Below, piece after piece: positions 1 to 60,154 of a DNA stretch of 64,000 nucleotides. Below the pieces are notes generated by a model, which was not told the origin of the DNA, made no database searches, and saw nothing but the letters and a program-made list of their open reading frames with translations. A program made the position numbers and the translations under genes. The stretch's first letter is position 1. The number at the start of each line of letters is the position of its first letter. Source of the DNA: a phage. The stretch lies in the sequence record PZ295659.1; one strand, written 5' to 3'.

Positions 1-1025
1 ATAAATACCCACGAGAAGAACACGCATGGGAATATCTTTGGTCTGAAATTTATAAACGGAACATTTATTTGAATGCTGAGAAACGTGATTTAGTTTCTAG
101 GTTCTTTGAGTCCAGAAGTTACGATTTTTATTCTACTAAAGGAACTGAAGCGTCGTATAAGTTTTTGTTTAAAGTTCTTTATAACGAAGACGTTGAAGTG
201 GAAATTGAGTCATCTGCTGGAACAGAGTACGATATCATAATTCAATCTGATTCTATAAGTGAAGATTTGGTTGGACAAACTATATACACCGCTACAGGTA
301 GATGTAATGTTACATATTTAGAAAGAAGCTATTCTAAAGGTAAATTACAATGGACTGTGACTATTCATAACCTTTTAGGTAGGCTTTTAGTCGGTCAAGA
401 AGTAAAAGCCGAAAGACTAGCAGATTTTGAAGGTGAAATAGTTCGCGGTATTAAAGGTAAAGAACTTGCCCAAAACACTATTGATTATTTTAATCGTGGT
501 AGAGCTTATTACGTCATGAAAATAAAGTCAAATCTTCCATCCTCTCGTTGGAAATCTGACGTACTACGTTTTGTACATCCGGTAGGATTTGGATTTATTG
601 CAATAACCTTATTAACAATGTTTATTAATACAGGATTAACGCTTAAACATGTTGAAACTATTATTAATAAATATAAAAATTATAAGTGGGATTCCGGACT
701 GCCTACGGAATATGCAGACCGCGTCGCTCGTTTAGACCCTCAAGGTAATGTAGAATTCAATCCTGTTACAGGTGAAGTAATTTATGATGCCGGTCCTTAT
801 GCCGGTATCGAATACCCTTTACCTGCAAATTATAACGAAGAAAATGATAACTCTATTTTCCAAGGACAATTACCGTCTGAACGACGCAAGCCAATGAGCC
901 CATTATTTGATGCATCAGGTACAACGTTCTCTAGATTTAGAGAGCTTGTTAATGAAAGATTGTTAGATAACGTGGGAAATCCTAGAGACCCGATTAATCC
1001 ACCACAGGTTAAATTAGATGAATGA
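1..1025 (+). CDS. 7: baseplate wedge protein gp7, C-terminal part (frame open from window start)
   Basis: Reading frame open from position 1; lies immediately upstream of a 334-aa gp8-like ORF with an 8-nt overlap, matching T4 gene order 7-8-9-10-11-12. Confidence 0.75.
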   Translation, partial: KYPREEHAWEYLWSEIYKRNIYLNAEKRDLVSRFFESRSYDFYSTKGTEASYKFLFKVLYNEDVEVEIESSAGTEYDIIIQSDSISEDLVGQTIYTATGRCNVTYLERSYSKGKLQWTVTIHNLLGRLLVGQEVKAERLADFEGEIVRGIKGKELAQNTIDYFNRGRAYYVMKIKSNLPSSRWKSDVLRFVHPVGFGFIAITLLTMFINTGLTLKHVETIINKYKNYKWDSGLPTEYADRVARLDPQGNVEFNPVTGEVIYDAGPYAGIEYPLPANYNEENDNSIFQGQLPSERRKPMSPLFDASGTTFSRFRELVNERLLDNVGNPRDPINPPQVKLDE

Positions 1026-2022
1026 TTCAAGTGTTGTCTATCGTGCGATAGTTACTTCAAAATTTAGAACTGAAAAAATGTTGAATTTCTACAATTCAAT
1101 AGGTGATGGTGATAATAAAAACACCATCTTTATAACGTTTGGTCGGTCTGAACCATGGGCTGCTAATGAAAATGAGGTGGGCTTCGCCCCACCGTATCCA
1201 ACAGACTCGGTTTTAGGTGTAACAGATATGTGGACTAACATGATGGGTTTAGTTAAAGTTATCCCATCTATGTTAGACTCGGTTATTCCTAGACGTGACT
1301 GGGGAGATATTCGTTATCCGGACCCTTATACATTCAAAATAAATGATATAGTCGTATGTAATACAGCCCCATATAATGCCACTGAAGTCGGGGCCGGATG
1401 GTTAGTATACCGTTGCGTAGATGTTCCTGATGTTGGGATGTGTTCTATTGAGTCTCTCGACAACAAAGAAGAATGTCTTAAATTAGGTGGTAAATGGACT
1501 CCGTCTGTTAGGTCTTTAACACCTCCTGAAGGCCGTGGAGATGCTGAAGGGATTATCGAAGTTGGTGATGGATATATATGGGAGTATCTTTATGAGATTC
1601 CACCTGATGTGTCTATAAACCGATGTACTAATGAATATATAGTCGTTCCATGGCCGGAAGAAGTTAAAGAAGACCCTGCTCGTTGGGGATATGAAAACAA
1701 TCTAACCTGGCAACAAGATGATTTTGGCCTTGTGTATAGAGTTAAAGCAAACATAATTCGTTTTAAAGCCTATTTAGACTCAGTTTATTTCCCTAATGCA
1801 GCACTGCCTGGTAATAAAGGATTTAGACAAATTTCTATTATCACAAACCCCTTGGAAGCTAAACTCCGTCCTAATGACCCTAATATAAAGGCTGAAAAGG
1901 ATTATTATGACCCCAGAGATTTACAGCGTCATTCTGGTGAAATGATTTATATGGAAAACCGTCCACCTATTATTATGGCAATGGACCAAACCGAAGAGAT
2001 CAATATTTTGTTTATGTTCTAA
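1018..2022 (+). CDS. 8: baseplate wedge protein gp8
   Basis: 334 aa, same length as T4 gp8; position between gp7 and gp9; UUCG hairpin terminator directly downstream. Confidence 0.8.
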   Translation: MNDSSVVYRAIVTSKFRTEKMLNFYNSIGDGDNKNTIFITFGRSEPWAANENEVGFAPPYPTDSVLGVTDMWTNMMGLVKVIPSMLDSVIPRRDWGDIRYPDPYTFKINDIVVCNTAPYNATEVGAGWLVYRCVDVPDVGMCSIESLDNKEECLKLGGKWTPSVRSLTPPEGRGDAEGIIEVGDGYIWEYLYEIPPDVSINRCTNEYIVVPWPEEVKEDPARWGYENNLTWQQDDFGLVYRVKANIIRFKAYLDSVYFPNAALPGNKGFRQISIITNPLEAKLRPNDPNIKAEKDYYDPRDLQRHSGEMIYMENRPPIIMAMDQTEEINILFMF

Positions 2023-2026
2023 TTTA

Positions 2027-2044
2027 GGGAGACTTCGGTCTCCC
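2027..2044 (+). terminator. GGGAGAC-UUCG-GUCUCCC hairpin after gene 8
   Basis: Identical 18-mer hairpin 5 nt after the gp8 stop, followed by UUUCG and the gene 9 late promoter. Confidence 0.6.
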
Positions 2045-2051
2045 TTTCGTG

Positions 2052-2059
2052 TATAAATA
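2052..2059 (+). promoter_or_regulatory. late promoter TATAAATA for gene 9
   Basis: Exact TATAAATA 26 nt upstream of the gp9 ATG. Confidence 0.6.
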
Positions 2060-8420: not shown

Positions 8421-8426
8421 TGAAAA

Positions 8427-8440
8427 GGGCCTTCGGGCCC
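8427..8440 (+). terminator. GGGCC-UUCG-GGCCC hairpin downstream of wac
   Basis: Perfect 5-bp GC stem with UUCG tetraloop 7 nt after the wac stop codon. Confidence 0.55.
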
Positions 8441-8452
8441 TAAAGGATTTAT

Positions 8453-19772: not shown

Positions 19773-21341
19773 ATGACTACTATCAAAACTAAAGCTCAGC
19801 TCGTAGACAAATGGAAAGAACTGCTGGAAGGTGAAGGCCTGCCGGAAATCGCTAATAGCAAGCAGGCTATTATCGCTAAAATCTTCGAAAACCAGGAAAA
19901 AGATTTCGAAGTATCCCCTGAATATAAAGACGAGAAAATCGCTCAGGCATTTGGTTCTTTCTTGACCGAAGCTGAAATTGGTGGTGACCACGGTTATAAT
20001 GCTCAGAACATCGCAGCAGGTCAAACCTCTGGTGCAGTAACCCAGATTGGGCCGGCAGTTATGGGTATGGTTCGTCGTGCTATTCCTAATCTGATCGCTT
20101 TCGATATTTGTGGTGTTCAGCCTATGAACAGCCCTACCGGTCAGGTATTTGCTCTCCGTGCAGTATATGGTAAAGACCCTATCGCTGCTGACGCTAAAGA
20201 AGCTTTCCATCCGATGTATGCTCCAGACGCGATGTTCTCTGGTCAGGGTGCTGCTAAGAAATTCCCAGCTCTGGCTGCTAGCACACAAACCGTTGTAGGT
20301 GATATCTATACTCACTTCTTCCAGGAAACTGGTACTGTGTATCTACAAGCTTCCGCTGTAGTAACAATTGATGCTGGCGCTACCGATGCAACTAAACTGG
20401 ATGCTGAAATTAAGAAACAAATGGAAGCTGGTGTACTGGTAGAAATCGCTGAAGGTATGGCTACTTCTATCGCTGAACTTCAGGAAGGTTTCAACGGTTC
20501 TACCGATAACCCATGGAATGAAATGGGCTTCCGTATCGATAAACAAGTTATTGAAGCTAAATCTCGTCAGTTGAAAGCAGCTTACTCCATCGAATTGGCA
20601 CAAGACCTCCGTGCAGTACACGGTATGGATGCTGATGCTGAACTGAGCGGTATTCTTGCTACTGAAATTATGCTGGAAATCAACCGTGAAGTTGTTGACT
20701 GGATTAACTACTCCGCTCAGGTTGGTAAATCTGGTATGACTAATATCGTTGGTTCTAAAGCTGGTGTATTTGACTTCCAGGACCCGATTGATATCCGTGG
20801 TGCTCGTTGGGCCGGTGAAAGCTTTAAAGCTCTGTTGTTCCAGATTGATAAAGAAGCAGTTGAAATTGCTCGTCAAACCGGTCGTGGTGAAGGTAACTTC
20901 ATTATCGCTTCCCGTAACGTAGTTAACGTACTGGCTTCAGTTGATACTGGTATTTCTTACGCTGCACAGGGTCTGGCTTCTGGTTTTAATACCGACACTA
21001 CTAAGTCTGTATTTGCCGGTGTACTTGGTGGTAAATACCGCGTATACATCGACCAGTATGCTAAACAGGATTACTTCACCGTTGGTTACAAAGGCGCTAA
21101 CGAAATGGATGCAGGTATTTACTATGCTCCTTACGTTGCACTCACCCCACTGCGTGGTTCCGATCCTAAGAACTTCCAGCCGGTAATGGGCTTTAAAACT
21201 CGTTACGGTATCGGTGTTAACCCGTTTGCTGAAAGTTCCCTGCAGGCTCCAGGCGCTCGCATCCAGTCCGGTATGCCGTCTATCCTGAACAGCCTTGGTA
21301 AGAACGCTTACTTCCGCCGTGTATATGTAAAAGGCATCTAA
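19773..21341 (+). CDS. 23: major capsid protein gp23
   Basis: 522 aa; near-identical to recalled T4 gp23 (LLEGEGLPEIANSKQAIIAKIFENQEKDF, AIPNLIAFDICGVQPMNSPTGQVFALRAVYGKDP). Confidence 0.97.
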   Translation: MTTIKTKAQLVDKWKELLEGEGLPEIANSKQAIIAKIFENQEKDFEVSPEYKDEKIAQAFGSFLTEAEIGGDHGYNAQNIAAGQTSGAVTQIGPAVMGMVRRAIPNLIAFDICGVQPMNSPTGQVFALRAVYGKDPIAADAKEAFHPMYAPDAMFSGQGAAKKFPALAASTQTVVGDIYTHFFQETGTVYLQASAVVTIDAGATDATKLDAEIKKQMEAGVLVEIAEGMATSIAELQEGFNGSTDNPWNEMGFRIDKQVIEAKSRQLKAAYSIELAQDLRAVHGMDADAELSGILATEIMLEINREVVDWINYSAQVGKSGMTNIVGSKAGVFDFQDPIDIRGARWAGESFKALLFQIDKEAVEIARQTGRGEGNFIIASRNVVNVLASVDTGISYAAQGLASGFNTDTTKSVFAGVLGGKYRVYIDQYAKQDYFTVGYKGANEMDAGIYYAPYVALTPLRGSDPKNFQPVMGFKTRYGIGVNPFAESSLQAPGARIQSGMPSILNSLGKNAYFRRVYVKGI

Positions 21342-21365: not shown

Positions 21366-21383
21366 GGGAGACTTCGGTCTCCC
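21366..21383 (+). terminator. GGGAGAC-UUCG-GUCUCCC hairpin terminator after gene 23
   Basis: Perfect 7-bp stem with UUCG tetraloop followed by AUUUUGG; the same 18-mer recurs at 2027-2044 and, reverse-complemented, at 43864-43881 and 59231-59248. Confidence 0.7.
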
Positions 21384-21392
21384 ATTTTGGTT

Positions 21393-21662
21393 TTATTTCT
21401 GTGCAATTTCGATGTAAGTTTTCAAAATATTTTGCCAATTAGGCATACCTTCTTGGACATATGCTAGAGAACCGTCTTTGTTTTTGAATGATGCAAGTTT
21501 ATCAGTGGCCCAATAACCTTTAGCTCGAGCTTCAGAATCAACTTTCATCCATACTTTGTTGAAGGCATTACCATTAACTTTTGCACCATATTTTTCTACC
21601 AACTTAACTGCTTCAGCTTCCAGAACTTTTAAAGTATCTCGTAAGAAACGTGCTTTAGTCAT
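21393..21662 (-). CDS. hypothetical 89-aa protein, antisense to the late capsid operon
   Basis: Minus-strand ORF with its own early-type promoter and a GAGGAG RBS; sits in the 23-24 intergenic region where T4 carries segD; no recognisable motif. Confidence 0.5.
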   Translation of the reverse strand: MTKARFLRDTLKVLEAEAVKLVEKYGAKVNGNAFNKVWMKVDSEARAKGYWATDKLASFKNKDGSLAYVQEGMPNWQNILKTYIEIAQK

Positions 21663-21691: not shown

Positions 21692-21721
21692 TATAGTATC
21701 ACATACTAAATACGTTGTAAA
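21692..21721 (-). promoter_or_regulatory. early promoter (GTTTAC-N18-TACTAT) for the 89-aa ORF
   Basis: Minus strand reads GTTTACAACGTATTTAGTATGTGATACTAT, matching the T4 early promoter architecture. Confidence 0.55.
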
Positions 21722-24638: not shown

Positions 24639-24716
24639 AATCAATCCCGTATTATTTGGTTTGTGCCATTATACATCAATCTCAAGACGTGTTTGTATGC
24701 TTTAAAAACGAAGAAA

Positions 24717-24730
24717 GGGGCCGAAGCCCC
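24717..24730 (-). terminator. GGGGC-UUCG-GCCCC hairpin after hoc
   Basis: On the minus strand, a 5-bp GC stem with UUCG loop followed by UUUCUUCGUUUUU, just after the hoc stop. Confidence 0.6.
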
Positions 24731-24736
24731 TTACGA

Positions 24737-26595: not shown

Positions 26596-28110
26596 ATGAC
26601 TGACATTAAAGTACATTTTTATGATTTTAGTCACGTGCGCATTGAATGCGACGAAAGTACGTTTTACGAACTTCGTGACTTTTTTAGCTTTGAAGCTGAC
26701 GGGTATAAATTTAACCCAAAATATCGCTATGGGCAATGGGATGGTAGAATTCGACTTTTAGATTATAACCGTTTGTTACCATATGGACTTGTAGGACAAA
26801 TAAAAAAGTTCTGTAACAATATGAGTTATTCTGTATGGATTGACCCTAAAATCTTTGAGACAGAAGACCTTACCAGGGAAGATTTTGACGCATGGCTTTC
26901 TAAACAAGAAATTTATTCGGGCAACGCCAAAATCGAACCACATTGGTATCAAAAAGATGCAGTATACGAAGGACTAGTTAATCGTCGTCGAATTTTAAAC
27001 CTTCCGACATCAGCAGGTAAATCACTAATCCAAGCACTTTTAGCTCGATATTATCTAGAGAACTATGAAGGTAAAATTCTCATTATCGTCCCTACAACAG
27101 CATTGACAACCCAGATGGCTAATGATTTTGTTGATTATCGCTTGTTTAGTCATTCGATGATTAAGAAAATTGGCGGTGGTGCTGATAAAGCAGACAGAGC
27201 TAAAAACGACGCTCCAATTATTGTTGGCACATGGCAAACAGTAGTTAAGCAGCCTAAAGAATGGTTCTCTCAGTTCGGTATGATGATGAATGATGAATGC
27301 CACTTAGCAACAGGCAAAAGTATTTCTTCAATCATCTCAGGATTAAATAATTGCATGTTTAAATTCGGTTTATCTGGCTCATTAAGAGACGGAAAAGCCA
27401 ATGTAATGCAGTACGTAGGTATGTTCGGCGAAATCTTCCGTCCTGTTAGCACGTCTAAATTAATGGAAGACGGACAGGTAACTGAGCTTAAGATTAATAG
27501 TATTTTCCTTCGTTATCCAGACGAATTCACTGTTAAATTAAAAGGTAAAACATACCAAGAAGAAGTTAAAATTATTACCGGACTAAAACGACGTACAAAG
27601 TGGATTGCTCAACTTTCAGTCAAATTGGCTAAGAAAGACGAGAACGCCTTTGTAATGTTTAAACATGTTACACACGGTAAAGAAATATTTGAAGCTATTA
27701 AAGAGCTTGGATACGAAAAAGTTTATTACGTATCAGGTGAAGTTGATACTGAAACACGTAACGCGCTTAAAGTCATGGCAGAAAATGGTAAAGGCATCAT
27801 TATTGTCGCATCATATGGAGTATTCTCTACTGGTATTTCAGTCAAGAATCTTCATCATGTTATTTTCGCCCATGGTGTTAAATCAAAAATTATCGTACTT
27901 CAAACCGTAGGTCGCGTGCTTCGTAAGCATGGTTCTAAAACTGTTGCTACAGTTTGGGATCTCATCGATGACGCAGGTGTAAAACCTAAATCATTAAATA
28001 CTAAAAAGAAGTATACTCATCTTAATTACTTGTTAAAACACGGTATTGATCGTATCCAACGTTACGCTGATGAGAAATTTAACTATGTAATGAAAACAAT
28101 TAATTTATAA
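26596..28110 (+). CDS. uvsW: UvsW RNA-DNA / DNA helicase (SF2)
   Basis: 504 aa; Walker A PTSAGKS, DExH box MMNDECHL, helicase C-terminal motifs. Confidence 0.9.
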   Translation: MTDIKVHFYDFSHVRIECDESTFYELRDFFSFEADGYKFNPKYRYGQWDGRIRLLDYNRLLPYGLVGQIKKFCNNMSYSVWIDPKIFETEDLTREDFDAWLSKQEIYSGNAKIEPHWYQKDAVYEGLVNRRRILNLPTSAGKSLIQALLARYYLENYEGKILIIVPTTALTTQMANDFVDYRLFSHSMIKKIGGGADKADRAKNDAPIIVGTWQTVVKQPKEWFSQFGMMMNDECHLATGKSISSIISGLNNCMFKFGLSGSLRDGKANVMQYVGMFGEIFRPVSTSKLMEDGQVTELKINSIFLRYPDEFTVKLKGKTYQEEVKIITGLKRRTKWIAQLSVKLAKKDENAFVMFKHVTHGKEIFEAIKELGYEKVYYVSGEVDTETRNALKVMAENGKGIIIVASYGVFSTGISVKNLHHVIFAHGVKSKIIVLQTVGRVLRKHGSKTVATVWDLIDDAGVKPKSLNTKKKYTHLNYLLKHGIDRIQRYADEKFNYVMKTINL

Positions 28111-28122
28111 GGGCTTCGGCCC
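28111..28122 (+). terminator. GGGC-UUCG-GCCC intercistronic hairpin
   Basis: Perfect hairpin immediately after the uvsW stop and before the uvsW.1 RBS. Confidence 0.45.
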
Positions 28123-28134
28123 TTAGGAGATAAA

Positions 28135-35710: not shown

Positions 35711-36672
35711 TGTACTCTTTAGAAGAATTTAATAACCAAGCTATAAATGCAGATTTCCAACGAAACAATATGTTTAGTTGTGTATTTGCTACTACACCAT
35801 CGACCAAATCGTCTTCACTAATTTCGTCAATTGGTAGTTTTGCTTATAATAACTTAGGGTTGGATTCCGATTGGCTAGGATTGACTCAAGGTGATATCAA
35901 TCAGGGCGTAACAACCCTGATTACAGCAGGAACACAGAAATTAATTCGAAAATCAGGTGTAAGTAAATATCTGATTGGAGCAATGAGTCAACGTACGGTA
36001 CAAAGCTTGTTAGGCGAGTTCACAGTAGGATCTTATCTGATAGACTTCTTCAATATGGCATATAATAATACAGGTTTAATGATTTATTCTGTAAAAATGC
36101 CTGAGAACCGATTATCTTATGAAACAGATTTCAACTATAACTCCCCGAACATCCGAATTACCGGCCGTGAAATGGACCCGTTAGTAATAAGCTTTAGAAT
36201 GGATTCCGAAGCATCTAACTTTAGAGCAATGCAAGACTGGGTAAACTCGGTCCAAGACCCTGTAACAGGTCTTCGTGCTTTACCACAAGACGTCGAAGCA
36301 GATATTCAGGTTAATTTACATGCACGAAATGGTTTACCACATACCGCTGTCATGTTCACTGGATGTATTCCTGTTAGTGTCTCTTCTCCTGAGTTAACGT
36401 ATGATGGTGATAATCAGATAACAGTTTTTGATGTAACATTTGCTTATCGCGTTATGCAATCAGGTGCTGTAAATAGACAGGCCGCTTTAGAATGGCTGGA
36501 ATCAGGACTTATTAGTAGTGTTTCAGGAATGTTTGGAAATAATCAGAATGATTCTGGCCTAGGAAGTGCAGTATCAAGACTTTCTAGATTAGGTGGGACT
36601 GCTGGAGGTGTGTCTAATATAAACACATTGACAGGTGTGGTGAATTCTACGTCAAGAGTTTTAGGACTATAA
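35710..36672 (+). CDS. 54: baseplate tail tube initiator gp54
   Basis: 320 aa, same as T4 gp54; ATGA overlap with gp48. Confidence 0.85.
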   Translation: MYSLEEFNNQAINADFQRNNMFSCVFATTPSTKSSSLISSIGSFAYNNLGLDSDWLGLTQGDINQGVTTLITAGTQKLIRKSGVSKYLIGAMSQRTVQSLLGEFTVGSYLIDFFNMAYNNTGLMIYSVKMPENRLSYETDFNYNSPNIRITGREMDPLVISFRMDSEASNFRAMQDWVNSVQDPVTGLRALPQDVEADIQVNLHARNGLPHTAVMFTGCIPVSVSSPELTYDGDNQITVFDVTFAYRVMQSGAVNRQAALEWLESGLISSVSGMFGNNQNDSGLGSAVSRLSRLGGTAGGVSNINTLTGVVNSTSRVLGL

Positions 36673-36680
36673 GAAAAAAA

Positions 36681-36699
36681 AGGGAGACGTTGTCTCCCT
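36681..36699. terminator. bidirectional hairpin terminator between gene 54 and the alt region
   Basis: AGGGAGAC-GUUG-GUCUCCCU stem-loop preceded by an A-run and followed by UUUAGGGG. Confidence 0.55.
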
Positions 36700-36707
36700 T
36701 TAGGGGT

Positions 36708-37001
36708 TTATTTACGGAATGAAAGGAATGCTGGTGCTCGGAATGGAGTATCATCTTTAGAGTATTTAACTAATACGACCATTGGCACCTCTGTTTCTAA
36801 ATGACCTGTCACTACACCGACAAAAATTTGATCAGTGTGCTCAGGGTCACGAAAGTTTTTAAGAGGTTCCATAGCAATATGGAATGCACCTGGGAATACT
36901 CGATTCAATTCGTCAATCACAGCTTCGTTAAAAGCATCATCCGCTGGGATAACATCTTCAACTACTAGTTCTTGACCATTAAAGCGAAGCATAGATTTCA
37001 T
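36708..37001 (-). CDS. hypothetical protein (97 aa, alt.-1-like)
   Basis: Start moved to an internal ATG preceded by a GAGGAAAA RBS so it no longer overlaps alt; own early promoter upstream. Confidence 0.4.
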   Translation of the reverse strand: MKSMLRFNGQELVVEDVIPADDAFNEAVIDELNRVFPGAFHIAMEPLKNFRDPEHTDQIFVGVVTGHLETEVPMVVLVKYSKDDTPFRAPAFLSFRK

Positions 37002-39182: not shown

Positions 39183-39200
39183 CAAAAAGAGCCCGAAGGC
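39183..39200 (-). terminator. AAGAGCC-UUCG-GGCUCUU hairpin upstream of alt
   Basis: Perfect 7-bp stem with UUCG loop on the minus strand between the small ORF and alt. Confidence 0.5.
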
Positions 39201-39202
39201 TC

Positions 39203-39391
39203 TTAATCCACAATCGGGAGCAAAGTACGATAAACTTCAAAATTAGGGCCTTTTTCGTACCCATTAACGTTATCTACGAAAACCCGATACGAATTTTCAT
39301 TAGGAAAATCTAATATAATCTGAGAGCAAGAGGTGGAAACATCTCCACCATCCTTCTTAGCTACAATAACTGTTTCTAAATAAGCTTTCAT
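39203..39391 (-). CDS. hypothetical small protein (62 aa)
   Basis: ATG overlapping the gp30 stop codon (TAATG coupling); start moved from the track's upstream in-frame codon. Confidence 0.4.
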   Translation of the reverse strand: MKAYLETVIVAKKDGGDVSTSCSQIILDFPNENSYRVFVDNVNGYEKGPNFEVYRTLLPIVD

Positions 39392-42917: not shown

Positions 42918-42933
42918 GGAGGCCGAAGCCTCC
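42918..42933 (-). terminator. GGAGGC-UUCG-GCCUCC hairpin
   Basis: On the minus strand the hairpin follows the stop of ORF 42944-43309 and is followed by UUUUAGG. Confidence 0.5.
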
Positions 42934-42943
42934 ATTTTTAAGA

Positions 42944-43309
42944 TTAGATATCAAATTCGTTAAGAACTACATCAAAGATTGCTTCGAGATGTTCAGGTTT
43001 AGCTCGGTTGCTCAGGATGTGACGAATCCAAGTTTTAACCAGAAGTTTACGATTAACACCGTTCCAGCAAGGATGAGTACCTAAATCACGTTGACGGAAA
43101 TCGTCATCTAATGCAATTTTGAAGTTGGAACCTTCCATCGTGATTGAAACCGTGATGCCATTTTCAAATCGCATATAAACGTAATTAGGAGTCATATACT
43201 GCTCAATTTCGCATACTGAACCGTTATTATGCTTCCATAAGCAAATTGTATCGATAGAACCAGCAATACCGTTAGAAACATATTTACGTTCGAAGTTGAT
43301 GTAGTTCAT
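42944..43309 (-). CDS. hypothetical early protein (121 aa)
   Basis: Own early promoter; translation initiation region GGAGAATAAAATGAAC identical to that of the next gene. Confidence 0.5.
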   Translation of the reverse strand: MNYINFERKYVSNGIAGSIDTICLWKHNNGSVCEIEQYMTPNYVYMRFENGITVSITMEGSNFKIALDDDFRQRDLGTHPCWNGVNRKLLVKTWIRHILSNRAKPEHLEAIFDVVLNEFDI

Positions 43310-43350
43310 TTTATTCTCCAGATGTTTAAGTTGTTTGTTGGTACAGGTCT

Positions 43351-43379
43351 ATAATAACAAAACCTGTACCAAAGTAAAC
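43351..43379 (-). promoter_or_regulatory. early promoter (GTTTAC-N17-TATTAT)
   Basis: Minus strand reads GTTTACTTTGGTACAGGTTTTGTTATTAT, upstream of ORF 42944-43309. Confidence 0.5.
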
Positions 43380-43383
43380 ATTT

Positions 43384-43755
43384 TTATTTGATTTTTGTCC
43401 ACTTAGCTGAATCAATAACACCTTTTGCTTTAATCTTCTCGATTAATGACTCTGCACGATTTCTGGCATTTTCATACCATACAACATCTTCAGAGTAACC
43501 TGTTTCTTCATCTTCGTAAGTTTTAGAACGAATACAACCATAAACTGTAGAATTCAGACGGTAAATTTCACCAGTGAAAAAGTTTTCGATTTCGATATGA
43601 TAACAAAAATCGTCTGAAGGGCCATCAGGAGTTGTACAATAAACTACATCACCTTGAATCGAACGAACCATCCACTGTAACTCGTTAACAACTTGAGATT
43701 TATATCCATCGTGGTCACGGCATTTAATTGTAGCATTTAAATTGATAGTGTTCAT
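43384..43755 (-). CDS. hypothetical early protein (123 aa)
   Basis: Own early promoter and the same RBS-start cassette as its neighbour; several Cys residues. Confidence 0.5.
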   Translation of the reverse strand: MNTINLNATIKCRDHDGYKSQVVNELQWMVRSIQGDVVYCTTPDGPSDDFCYHIEIENFFTGEIYRLNSTVYGCIRSKTYEDEETGYSEDVVWYENARNRAESLIEKIKAKGVIDSAKWTKIK

Positions 43756-43797
43756 TTTATTCTCCGGTTGTTTTTATTGATTAGGTGGTACAAGTCT

Positions 43798-43826
43798 ATA
43801 GTAACACATCCTACAGGAGAGTAAAC
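43798..43826 (-). promoter_or_regulatory. early promoter (GTTTAC-N17-TACTAT)
   Basis: Minus strand reads GTTTACTCTCCTGTAGGATGTGTTACTAT, upstream of ORF 43384-43755. Confidence 0.5.
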
Positions 43827-43863
43827 ATCTTTTTTAAACTTTTTCTGCCCTAAACGCACAAAA

Positions 43864-43881
43864 GGGAGACCGAAGTCTCCC
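43864..43881 (-). terminator. GGGAGAC-UUCG-GUCUCCC hairpin terminator
   Basis: Third copy of the identical 18-mer hairpin, 5 nt after the stop of the 59-aa ORF and followed by a U-run on the minus strand. Confidence 0.6.
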
Positions 43882-43886
43882 TAAAA

Positions 43887-44066
43887 TTATGCAACAACCT
43901 TTCCAAAACGAGAAGCATCATCTCGAAGAACTGCACGTGCTCTGCGCATGATCTTCTCAACGGTTTGATTAATACGAGAGTTCGACCCACGCTTGTATCC
44001 AGCGCGTTTAGAGGTACCATCAACTTTCTTTTCTACTGCTTTCTTTGCTTTAGCTTGTTTTGCCAT
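43887..44066 (-). CDS. small basic protein (59 aa), absent from the ORF track
   Basis: Hand-translated MAKQAKAKKAVEKKVDGTSKRAGYKRGSNSRINQTVEKIMRRARAVLRDDASRFGKVVA; terminator hairpin immediately downstream. Confidence 0.45.
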   Translation of the reverse strand: MAKQAKAKKAVEKKVDGTSKRAGYKRGSNSRINQTVEKIMRRARAVLRDDASRFGKVVA

Positions 44067-52516: not shown

Positions 52517-52530
52517 GGGACCGAAGTCCC
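52517..52530 (-). terminator. GGGAC-UUCG-GUCCC intercistronic hairpin between nrdB and denA
   Basis: UUCG-loop hairpin located 4 nt after the nrdB stop and 8 nt before the denA ATG. Confidence 0.45.
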
Positions 52531-59170: not shown

Positions 59171-59199
59171 ATAGTATCATGTTTAAAGGAAAAGTAAAC
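59171..59199 (-). promoter_or_regulatory. early promoter (GTTTAC-N17-TACTAT)
   Basis: Minus strand reads GTTTACTTTTCCTTTAAACATGATACTAT; shares the 20-nt block TTGATAAGTCTATAGTATCA with the promoter at 21692-21721. Confidence 0.55.
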
Positions 59200-59230: not shown

Positions 59231-59248
59231 GGGAGACCGAAGTCTCCC
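59231..59248 (-). terminator. gene 32 terminator hairpin GGGAGAC-UUCG-GUCUCCC
   Basis: Fourth copy of the identical 18-mer, 7 nt after the gp32 stop, followed by UUUUGAG on the minus strand. Confidence 0.7.
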
Positions 59249-59254
59249 AATTTA

Positions 59255-60154
59255 TTATAGACCAGCTAACAGGTCATCGAGGTCGCCATCGTCAGAAGAC
59301 GAGGAACTCATGAAGTCATCTTCAGTTTTTGCAGAACTAAAGGCTTCCATGTCTTTATCAAAATCGTCAAGGTCAGAAGCAACTTTATCTGCAACAGAAG
59401 CTGCGGCAGCTGCTGCACCGCCCAGAGCGGCAGTACCAAGAACTTGTTTAAATTTAGTATTCAATTCTTCAAACGATTTGAACTTATCTTTAGAAGTCAT
59501 TTCAGAAAGGTCAACCATTTGTTCGAACAATTCTTTCTGGAAAGATTCATCATCAATGTTTGGAATCGCAGATTGATTCAGGAATTTAGATTCGTCGTAA
59601 TTACTGAAACCAGAAACCTGTTTAACTTTCAGCACAAAGTTAGCACCTTCCCATGGGCAAGTTACATCAACAGGAGTTTCACCCATTTCAGTATCGACTG
59701 CAATCATTGCATTGATTTTGTCCCAAATCTTTTTACCAAAACGGTATTTGAATACTTTACCTTCATTATCTGGAGCTTGTGGGTCTTTAACAACCAGGAT
59801 ATTAGCCCAATAAGAAGTTTTACGTTTCAGTTGAGAATATTCTGTTTTGTTTGTATTGTACAGATCATTTTTACTAATGTACTGACATACTGGACAAGAG
59901 TCATAATCGCCGTGTGTAGATGAACAGGTTTCAATATACCATTTGCCGTTTTTCTTGAACCCGTGGTTAACAAGAATTGCAAACGGAAGTGCGTCATCTG
60001 TTTTTGCCGGCAGGAAACGAATTACCGCTTGACCATTACCGGATGCATCGAGTTTCAGCTTCCATTCACCTTTATCTTCTGAAGAGAAACCTTTGTTACC
60101 ATTCAGTTTAGCCATCTGAGCTGCGAGGTCTGCGGTACTTTTACGTTTAAACAT
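59255..60154 (-). CDS. 32: single-stranded DNA-binding protein gp32
   Basis: 299 aa (T4 gp32 301 aa); near-identical to recalled T4 gp32 including the zinc-binding region [11 protein letters not shown] and the acidic S/D-rich C-terminus. Confidence 0.95.

Follow-up and report, generated by a model that had tools for sequence, protein, structure and literature searches.

The 18-nt sequence GGGAGACTTCGGTCTCCC, which is present in four identical copies in the 64,000-nt stretch of phage DNA analyzed here (sequence record PZ295659.1, hereafter referred to as the window), very probably represents a Rho-independent terminator that is used after genes 8, 23, 30.9 and 32 of an RB69-like phage, and the hairpin that it would form in the transcript probably also shields the 3' end of the message. 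We infer both termination and RNA stabilisation from the anatomy of the hairpins, from their conservation in relatives and from analogy to known systems. The window derives from a Mosigvirus (an RB69-like T-even phage of the T4 family) and is 97-98.7% identical to vB_VIPECOMC06, ZQ3, SF and APCEc01. Genes were identified from the ORF list and the annotation of G53, SF and RB69. The gene names proposed in an earlier reading of the window, made from the letters alone (the sequence-only reading), were right by orthology, the phage being RB69-like and not T4 itself.

Four identical hairpins downstream of genes 8, 23, 30.9 and 32

An exact search of both strands of the window returned exactly four matches to the 18-mer, at the same coordinates as in the sequence-only reading (Table 1). 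No additional copies with up to three mismatches were found when the whole window was searched, and dinucleotide-preserving shuffles give an expectation of 0.00-0.01 copies. Each copy is positioned after a coding region, and at all four the sense strand reads TTCG and not CGAA, the loop being closed as ...GAC-UUCG-GUC..., which makes it a C(UUCG)G tetraloop. We folded 44 nt of context per copy with ViennaRNA. The RNA hairpin was the minimum-free-energy structure in all four contexts (−13.4 to −14.7 kcal/mol), which bears out the earlier description of a UUCG loop on a 7-bp stem in the transcribed strand. The bare 18-mer folds at −12.0 kcal/mol and its complementary strand with the CGAA loop at −11.1 kcal/mol, a gap that reflects the tetraloop bonus built into the program and is not a measurement. 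With a stem of 7-8 bp that includes five G-C pairs and a loop of 4 nt, all four copies fall within the range of G+C-rich terminator hairpins (stems of 5-14 bp, loops of 3-8 nt). The stem reaches 8 bp at copy 1 through the pair A2026/T2045 and at copy 2 through the pair T21365/A21384, the tail of copy 2 being TTTTGGTTTT.

The sequence-only reading had also described the stems as being followed by U-rich sequence, and this holds in part. Five T are present among the 8 nt past the stem at each copy (TTTCGTGT at copy 1, ATTTTGGT at copy 2, TTTTGTGC at copy 3 and TTTTGAGT at copy 4), but only three to four of them are consecutive and the runs are interrupted (UUUCG, AUUUUGG, UUUUGUG, UUUUGAG), which makes them shorter than those of T4. 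When a simple terminator scanner was run over copies 1, 3 and 4, it reported copy 4 and missed copies 1 and 3; the T-tail rule of a stricter in-house scan was passed by copies 2 and 4 and failed by copies 1 and 3. No Rfam family matched in the window, these hairpins included, and generic terminators are not expected in Rfam.

The flanks of the four copies have only A+T richness in common and are unrelated right up to the stem. The repeated unit is therefore the hairpin alone, which rules out a mobile repeat with conserved flanks.

Copy 1 is followed by a T4-type late promoter box that is kept at the same place after the gene 8 hairpin in T4; the window holds 18 matches to this box compared to 7.5 expected. 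Copy 2 separates gene 23 from a convergent ORF of 89 aa (21393-21662, minus strand). A bidirectional terminator at this place was considered and ruled out, because on the minus strand the loop reads CGAA and the sequence past the stem, AAAATAAG, lacks a U-run. Both copy 1 and copy 2 belong to the conserved block of late genes, and neither has an early promoter. An early-type promoter follows each of copies 3 and 4, with gene 30.8 coming next at copy 3. A scan with TTTACW-N16-18-TAYWAT, based on the consensus for the T4/PST group (PMC4122927), gave 10 matches in the window compared to 0.89 expected, all 10 of them on the minus (early) strand. The T4-type early promoters past copies 3 and 4 were not detected by a sigma-70 consensus scanner.

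Table 1. Coordinates of the 18-mer copies, the preceding genes, the adjacent promoters and the other hairpins of the window.
Feature	Position	Strand	Basis	Relation to the 18-mer
18-mer copy 1	2027-2044	+	exact search; fold; identical sequence after RB69 gene 8	
18-mer copy 2	21366-21383	+	exact search; fold; annotated terminator in G53	
18-mer copy 3	43864-43881	-	exact search; fold; RB69 annotation; stem_loop in TuIa record AJ621579	
18-mer copy 4	59231-59248	-	exact search; fold; RB69 annotation	
gene 8 (gp8, baseplate wedge), ORF	1018-2022	+		copy 1 starts 4 nt past the stop
gene 23 (gp23, major capsid), ORF	19773-21341	+		copy 2 starts 24 nt past the stop
gene 30.9 (gp30.9, 59 aa), ORF	43887-44066	-		copy 3 starts 5 nt past the stop
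gene 32 (gp32, ssDNA-binding protein), ORF	59255-60154	-		copy 4 starts 6 nt past the stop
T4-type late promoter box TATAAATA	2052-2059	+		7 nt past copy 1, ahead of gene 9
early-type promoter TTTACT-N16-TACTAT	43798-43825	-		38 nt downstream of copy 3
early-type promoter TTTACT-N16-TACTAT	59171-59198	-		32 nt downstream of copy 4
AGGGCC-TTCG-GGCCCT after wac	8426-8441	+	hairpin census; terminator in G53	
TAAGGGC-TTCG-GCCCTTA at uvsW end	28108-28125	+	hairpin census	
AAGGGGC-TTCG-GCCCCTT after hoc	24715-24732	-	hairpin census; identical to T4 hoc hairpin	
AAGAGCC-TTCG-GGCTCTT upstream of alt	39187-39204	-	hairpin census	
GGAGGC-TTCG-GCCTCC after gene 30.7	42918-42933	-	hairpin census	
GGGAC-TTCG-GTCCC after nrdB	52517-52530	-	hairpin census	
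AAAGGGAGAC-GTT-GTCTCCCTTT (GTT/AAC triloop)	36679-36701			fifth use of the 7-bp stem

Orientation of UUCG hairpins and a fifth use of the stem

A census of TTCG-loop hairpins with a perfect stem of at least 5 bp identified 10 in the window, compared to a mean of 0.79 and a maximum of 4 in shuffled sequences. All of the further UUCG hairpins listed in the sequence-only reading (after wac, uvsW, hoc and nrdB, upstream of alt and at 42918-42933) were recovered. The TTCG hairpins are in the sense orientation in 10 of 10 cases in the window, in 22 of 22 in the complete SF genome and in 19 of 20 in T4. Since the stem is palindromic and only the loop and the tail tell the strands apart, this bias argues for a role at the level of the transcript or of transcription rather than of duplex DNA. 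The exact 18-mer is found in the complete SF genome only at the same four sites. In the window, the count and orientation check that had been proposed earlier gave four copies, all in the sense orientation. A near variant, AAAGGAGAC-TTCG-GTCTCCTTT, is present in SF in two copies at other places in the genome.

The 7-bp stem is used a fifth time with a triloop, which had previously been missed. This stem lies between the convergent gene 54 (plus strand, ending at 36672) and an alt.-3 homologue (minus strand, ending at 36708). Downstream of it on the minus strand comes TTTTTCTTAT; added to the three T that end the extended stem, this makes a run of 8 T. The plus strand has no more than TTT after GTCTCCC. 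The stem probably serves as a terminator of the alt.-3 homologue and, with less strength, of gene 54.

Hairpins at the orthologous sites of relatives

The comparison with orthologous sites in related phages, likewise proposed earlier as a check, showed the identical 18-mer at all four sites in RB69, and in T4 a hairpin at each of the four, followed by 5-6 T in a row. The stems and loops of T4 are other than those of the window, namely AGGGAGCC-CATG-GGCTCCCT after gene 8 (GGGAGCC-CAUG), AGGGAACC-TTCG-GGTTCCCT after gene 23 (GGGAACC-UUCG), AGGACTCC-TTCG-GGAGTCCT after gene 30.9 (GGACUCC-UUCG) and GGGGACCC-TAGA-GGGTCCCC after gene 32 (in RNA GGGGACCC-UAGA-GGGUCCCC followed by U6). The T4 gene 32 terminator thus has the same position and the same architecture as copy 4 but a different stem and loop, the RB69 type having a UUCG tetraloop and a shorter U-run.

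Relatives carry annotations at several of these places. The gene 23 copy and a variant GGGAGCC-TTCG hairpin after gene 8 are annotated as putative terminators in G53, the gene 30.9 copy is annotated as a stem_loop in the TuIa record AJ621579, and the place orthologous to the stem at 36679-36701 is annotated as a terminator in G53. Searches of a phage database with 100-nt queries centred on each hairpin matched 48 (gene 8), 119 (gene 23), 151 (gene 30.9) and 153 (gene 32) records at 90% identity or more. Judged by these matches, the four-site hairpin feature is genus-wide, with the gene 8 copy apparently confined to about a third of the genomes. For the gene 8 terminator of G53, an abrupt recombination junction was considered and ruled out: identity is ~80% upstream and ~70-77% downstream, and the whole region is diverged.

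For a wider survey we made use of IMG/VR loci that encode relatives of gp23, gp32, gp8 and gp30.9. In these T4-like phages the best hairpin within ~120 nt past the stop had a median score of 21-26, compared to 13-15 in coding-region controls. The 95th percentile of the controls was exceeded at 97% of the gene 23 loci, 77% of the gene 32 loci, 100% of the gene 30.9 loci and 25% of the gene 8 loci, the last figure being low on account of a long upper tail among the gene 8 controls. A hairpin follows gene 23 in nearly all T4-like phages sampled. TTCG was the commonest loop at each of the four sites (26/65, 33/60, 19/44 and 12/18 loci), with UACG, GCAA and GAAA as further loops, and the stems vary between lineages through fully compensated changes (GGGAGAC, GGGAGCC, GGGAACC, GGGACC, GGAGCC, GGACTCC). 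At the gene 32 site some phages have the T4-type hairpin and others the GGGAGAC-UUCG type. Position and structure are therefore kept while the sequence turns over, as would be expected of terminators. We dropped a covariation count on the best hairpin per sequence as circular and used the comparison of post-stop hairpins with coding-region controls instead. IMG/VR genomes with 95-96% gp23 identity were rejected as a source of Mosigvirus polymorphism, as alignment showed them to be T4-type and not RB69-type; RB69 itself and the 100-nt database queries took their place.

Occurrence of the 18-mer in unrelated genomes

The exact 18-mer was found in at least 120 unrelated viral contigs of IMG/VR, which among the matches listed range from 30 to 63% G+C and have unrelated flanks, and, in a scan that took one genome from each bacterial and archaeal species, in at least 120 bacterial contigs from many phyla. 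Among the matches listed, the TTCG strand continues into a T-rich tail in 96 of 110 distinct viral contexts (at least 5 T in 8 nt) and in 102 of 125 distinct bacterial or archaeal contexts. The permuted purine arm GGAGGAC-TTCG-GTCCTCC was present in 108 viral contigs of IMG/VR, and the arm-swapped control GTCTCCC-TTCG-GGGAGAC in only 5, so that a purine-rich 5' arm is favored more than 20-fold over swapped arms (at least 120 versus 5 viral contigs). By these counts, C(UUCG)G hairpins with a purine-rich 5' arm are a generic and repeatedly used putative terminator core, of which GGGAGAC is one popular member. Loci of environmental phages contained 15 UUCG terminators in 2 Mb, which is too few to define a stem repertoire.

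Identity of the four copies and reuse of stems within genomes

The sequence-only reading had taken the exact identity of the four copies to suggest either strong selection or spread by recombination. Given the wide occurrence of the 18-mer, this argument is weaker than claimed. T4 also repeats stems of its own (AAGGGGC-TTCG twice, or three times at the 16-mer level, AAAGGCC-TTCG twice and AGGACTCC-TTCG twice). As the 18-mer is generic and T4 has its own duplicated hairpins, four identical hairpins among about 20-22 can come from a small preferred repertoire, and the identity of the four copies needs no special element. The repertoire account is semi-quantitative, and we infer the cause of the identity from sequence comparison.

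There is, in addition, an excess of stem sharing within genomes. In 26 T4-like genomes compared at the four sites, the same 6-nt arm was present at different sites of one genome in 30 of 99 pairs, whereas shuffling the genomes per site gave 11.1 ± 2.8 pairs and none of 5000 permutations reached 30; this test ignores kinship among the genomes and overstates the significance. Stem reuse between sites is thus about 2.7 times that of random pairing, again with kinship ignored, and with the Mosigvirus genomes left out the figures are 24 of 93 pairs versus 10.1 (kinship ignored as well). Individual lineages use GGGACC at three sites, GGAGCC at two or three, or GGAACC-CTAGT at two, and in some genomes a longer unit, (G)ATGGGAGAC-TTCG-GTCTCCCAT(T), is common to two sites. 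The pattern recurs in at least six lineages. Lineage-specific selection and gene conversion fit this excess equally well.

One way to account for the identity is that short-patch gene conversion or recombination between terminator hairpins, acting within the Mosigvirus lineage, carried a single terminator to the remaining sites, where its function would still be termination. We hold this to be possible though on balance doubtful. It would agree with the presence of four different hairpins in T4 where Mosigvirus has one, with the excess of shared arms both with and without Mosigvirus, with the longer unit at two sites, with the use of the same stem under a different loop at 36679-36701, and with an RB49 recombination junction that was mapped inside the stem-loop of a PeSL cassette (PMC2839356). 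On the other hand, the flanks are unrelated up to the stem, which limits a conversion tract to about 18 nt or less; the appearance of the 18-mer in many unrelated phages and bacteria makes convergence clearly possible; the permutation test takes no account of kinship; and the same pattern would be expected from lineage-specific selection, for example by the RNA polymerase or the RNases of the host. A broader and somewhat more speculative version is that the terminator hairpins of T4-like phages constitute a multi-copy family that evolves in concert, one stem being spread to unrelated terminator sites of a lineage by very short-patch gene conversion. Five sites carry the GGGAGAC/GUCUCCC stem, among them late-gene terminators that lie outside the hyperplastic regions.

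Relation to known hairpins of T4-like phages

CUUCGG hairpins are reported to be abundant between the genes of T4 (Tuerk et al. 1988, PNAS 85:1364, as cited in PMC8948821). C(UUCG)G hairpins were first described in T4, as the sequence-only reading had stated. The hairpins of the window resemble this class in having a UUCG loop closed by C-G, in being mostly intergenic and in lying on the transcribed strand; of the four orthologous sites in T4 itself, the two after genes 23 and 30.9 have a UUCG hairpin. However, the stem of the window differs from every T4 copy, and the window uses one stem at four sites (five with the triloop version) and has shorter U-runs. The window hairpins likewise share with Rho-independent terminators a G+C-rich stem, a short loop, a position few nucleotides past the stop codon and, in a weaker form, a 3' U-run, but differ from typical ones in that the U-tract contains only 3-4 consecutive U, so that they may be leaky attenuators.

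A second known system is formed by the PeSL cassettes of T4-like phages, which combine a stem-loop with an early promoter (Arbiol et al. 2010, PMC2839356; Comeau et al. 2014, PMC4122927). PeSL-type stem-loops of RB49 and phi1 caused termination about equal to that of rrnB T1 in a lacZ reporter, and recombination between PeSL cassettes has been documented, once within the loop itself (PMC2839356). For the T4/PST group the PeSL early promoter is sigma-70-like (TTTACW-N17-TAYWAT), and lineage-specific stem consensus sequences have been described (PMC4122927). The layout of a hairpin followed by an early promoter is present at copies 3 and 4 and is absent from copy 1 (late promoter), copy 2 (convergent ORF) and the stem at 36679, which like copies 1 and 2 is located in the late structural block. 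At most two of the four copies would thus qualify as PeSLs by their sequence context. Moreover, unlike PeSLs, which are cassettes of ~100 bp, the four copies have only the hairpin in common. In the single example of TuIa (AJ621579), gene 30.8 is missing and gene 30.7 comes directly after the hairpin-promoter cassette of copy 3; the junction falls within a promoter/ribosome-binding-site repeat that the window has ahead of 30.8 as well as of 30.7. Past the copy 4 promoter, T4 and the window have different ORFs, also a single example.

Proposed mode of action and alternative explanations

We propose that GGGAGAC would pair with GUCUCCC in the mRNA to form a stem topped by the C(UUCG)G tetraloop, which is very stable, and that the weak rU:dA hybrid of the short U-run would then allow release of the host RNA polymerase, probably only in part. 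Indeed, as the U-runs comprise 3-4 U, are interrupted and are shorter than the 5-6 U of T4, partial termination (attenuation) is to be expected. The hairpin left at the 3' end would block 3'-to-5' exonucleases and so shield the messages of genes 8, 23, 30.9 and 32, and transcription could restart just downstream, from the late promoter after gene 8 and the early promoters after genes 30.9 and 32. The identity of the copies would follow if T4-like phages choose their terminator stems from a limited set whose 5' arm is rich in purines, GGGAGAC-UUCG being very frequent in that set, and if individual lineages tend to adopt a single stem for several of their sites, through preference or through gene conversion between terminators. 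The terminator or RNA-stability function suggested in the sequence-only reading is well supported by position, orientation and comparative conservation, and stands as a prediction from sequence. In the literature searched, no 3'-end mapping or termination data were found for these sites or for T4-like phages.

An alternative is that the hairpins act mainly after transcription, as a barrier to 3' exonucleases or a processing end-point that sets mRNA stability, or by keeping the GGAG of the 5' arm in a duplex and so hiding it from the phage RegB endoribonuclease, while the polymerase largely reads through. The U-runs are indeed weak compared to those of T4, and gene 9 and others share the direction of late transcription with a promoter directly next to the hairpin, so that full termination is not required. 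In addition, CUUCGG hairpins are reported to have varied roles, among them mRNA stabilisation (PMC8948821), and the stem contains GGAG, the target motif of RegB (PMC1702504). Nevertheless, the same 18-mer in other phages and bacteria is mostly followed by a long T-run, which is a terminator signature, and the orthologous T4 hairpins have T-runs that are typical of terminators. We therefore consider a mainly post-transcriptional role unlikely; a protective role is in any case compatible with termination, since a terminator hairpin also protects the 3' end.

We regard as very improbable that the 18-mer is an element acting at the DNA level, such as a cruciform or hairpin for a recombination, replication or packaging protein, or a linker of mobile cassettes, with only secondary effects on transcription. 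The PeSL layout of copies 3 and 4 would suit this idea, as PeSLs have been proposed to be recombination linkers (PMC2839356, PMC4122927), and the TuIa arrangement with its missing gene 30.8 fits recombination between repeated promoter/ribosome-binding-site cassettes. Yet that junction lies in the promoter/ribosome-binding-site repeat and not in the hairpin. A cruciform is symmetric, whereas loop orientation is sense throughout the window and SF and the arm-swapped form is more than 20 times rarer. Furthermore, copies 1 and 2 belong to the conserved late-gene block without an early promoter, and the four copies have no common flanks and hence no common cassette. A functionless coincidence, for which nothing but the short length of the repeat speaks, is refuted: shuffles give no copies, all four copies are intergenic and sense-oriented, and the hairpin is kept across about 50-150 Mosigvirus genomes, depending on the site, and at the same places in other genera. 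Termination by hairpins that also shield the 3' end remains the preferred reading.

Implications

The finding is already known in kind from the T4 CUUCGG hairpins of 1988, from the terminator and stem-loop annotations of relatives and from the PeSL papers. RB69, with the same four copies, has been public for many years (AY303349, NC_004928). The sole point that goes past textbook knowledge is the within-genome excess of shared stems. As a rule of thumb, GGGAGAC-UUCG-GUCUCCC can be regarded as a near-universal compact terminator core across many unrelated phages and bacteria, and the asymmetry of the purine-rich 5' arm may be of some interest for terminator design. For the RB69-like phages, the hairpins probably mark the ends of transcription units (genes 8, 23, 30.9 and 32) and should be annotated as terminators. 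If gene conversion is behind the shared stems, it would add a small new facet to the genome dynamics of T-even phages. Should the terminator hairpins indeed evolve in concert, the PeSL idea would widen from early-promoter cassettes to terminators in general, and short identical linkers for modular exchange would be present over the whole genome.

Recurrent use of one stem in phage hairpins

We observed that the GGGAGAC/GTCTCCC stem of the 18-mer, the UUCG hairpin found after genes 8, 23, 30.9 and 32, has a fifth use in the window, where it carries a triloop instead of UUCG. When this stem is read on the minus strand it shows a run of eight T, three of which are the last bases of the extended stem. 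From its sequence it appears to terminate the alt.-3 homologue strongly and gene 54 weakly. The hairpin list of the sequence-only reading did not include this site.

A 22-nt hairpin is present in two identical copies at distant sites in SF (a close Mosigvirus relative). One copy follows the gene 41 homologue and the other sits in the tail-fibre block; both fall outside the stretch corresponding to the window. Counting this pair, the GGAGAC/GTCTCC core has seven uses in a Mosigvirus genome. Identical UUCG hairpins are duplicated within T4 as well, and the T4 copy of the hoc hairpin (AAGGGGC-TTCG-GCCCCTT) shows no differences from that of the window (24715-24732).

Positions of duplicated hairpins, promoter elements and the antisense ORF
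Feature	Record and position	Strand	Location
AAAGGAGAC-TTCG-GTCTCCTTT, two identical copies	SF NC_055749 101466-101487 and 135586-135607		
AAGGGGC-TTCG	T4 NC_000866 29952 and 110165; plus 16-mer at 69291		
AAAGGCC-TTCG	T4 NC_000866 5381 and 125541		
AGGACTCC-TTCG	T4 NC_000866 15303 and 130340		
GGGAGAC/GTCTCCC stem, GTT/AAC triloop, A/T extensions	window 36679-36701		between gene 54 (+) and alt.-3 homologue (-), convergent
89-aa ORF	window 21393-21662	minus	antisense, between genes 23 and 24
Early-type promoter match	window 21693-21721	minus	upstream of 89-aa ORF
Promoter/ribosome-binding-site cassettes GTTTACT...TAYTATAGACYTGTACCA...GGAGAATAAAATGAAC	window 43300-43400 and 43745-43830	minus	upstream of 30.7 and 30.8

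The 18-mer in bacterial contigs and a contig with two gp8 genes

Among the matches listed, many 18-mer-bearing bacterial contigs come from Gallionellaceae, Sideroxydans or Nitrosomonadales, and several of these, together with one unclassified beta-proteobacterial MAG, carry the 18-mer twice within ~0.7-3.6 kb. The context of the paired copies is often ACAG-18mer-CTGTTTTT. This sequence pattern suggests that this bacterial group, too, favours the hairpin as a terminator core. The 121-kb contig IMGVR_UViG_2974739009_000001 encodes gp8 twice, 13.5 kb apart and 100% identical to that of the window. Possibly this contig represents the genome of the window itself, carrying an assembly duplication or a terminal redundancy.

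Early promoters, an antisense ORF and a possible deletion in TuIa

The published early-promoter consensus of the promoter-early stem-loop (PeSL) cassettes (PMC4122927), TTTACW-N16-18-TAYWAT, has 10 matches in the whole window against a chance expectation of 0.89. All 10 are on the minus strand, which fits the counter-clockwise early transcription of T-even phages. The place of the 89-aa ORF is occupied in T4 by segD, a homing endonuclease gene. The sole Pfam match of the ORF is a sub-threshold one to DUF4859 (E = 0.003). From the side of this ORF, the gene 23 hairpin presents a CGAA loop without a U-run; the predicted transcript would enter it from the wrong side, and could extend antisense into gene 23.

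Genes 30.8 and 30.7 are each preceded by a cassette, and the two cassettes are near-identical. In phage TuIa (AJ621579 1-160) the hairpin and first cassette are joined straight to 30.7 and 30.8 is absent, an arrangement that, judged from the sequences, would be as expected of a PeSL-type deletion by recombination between the two cassettes.
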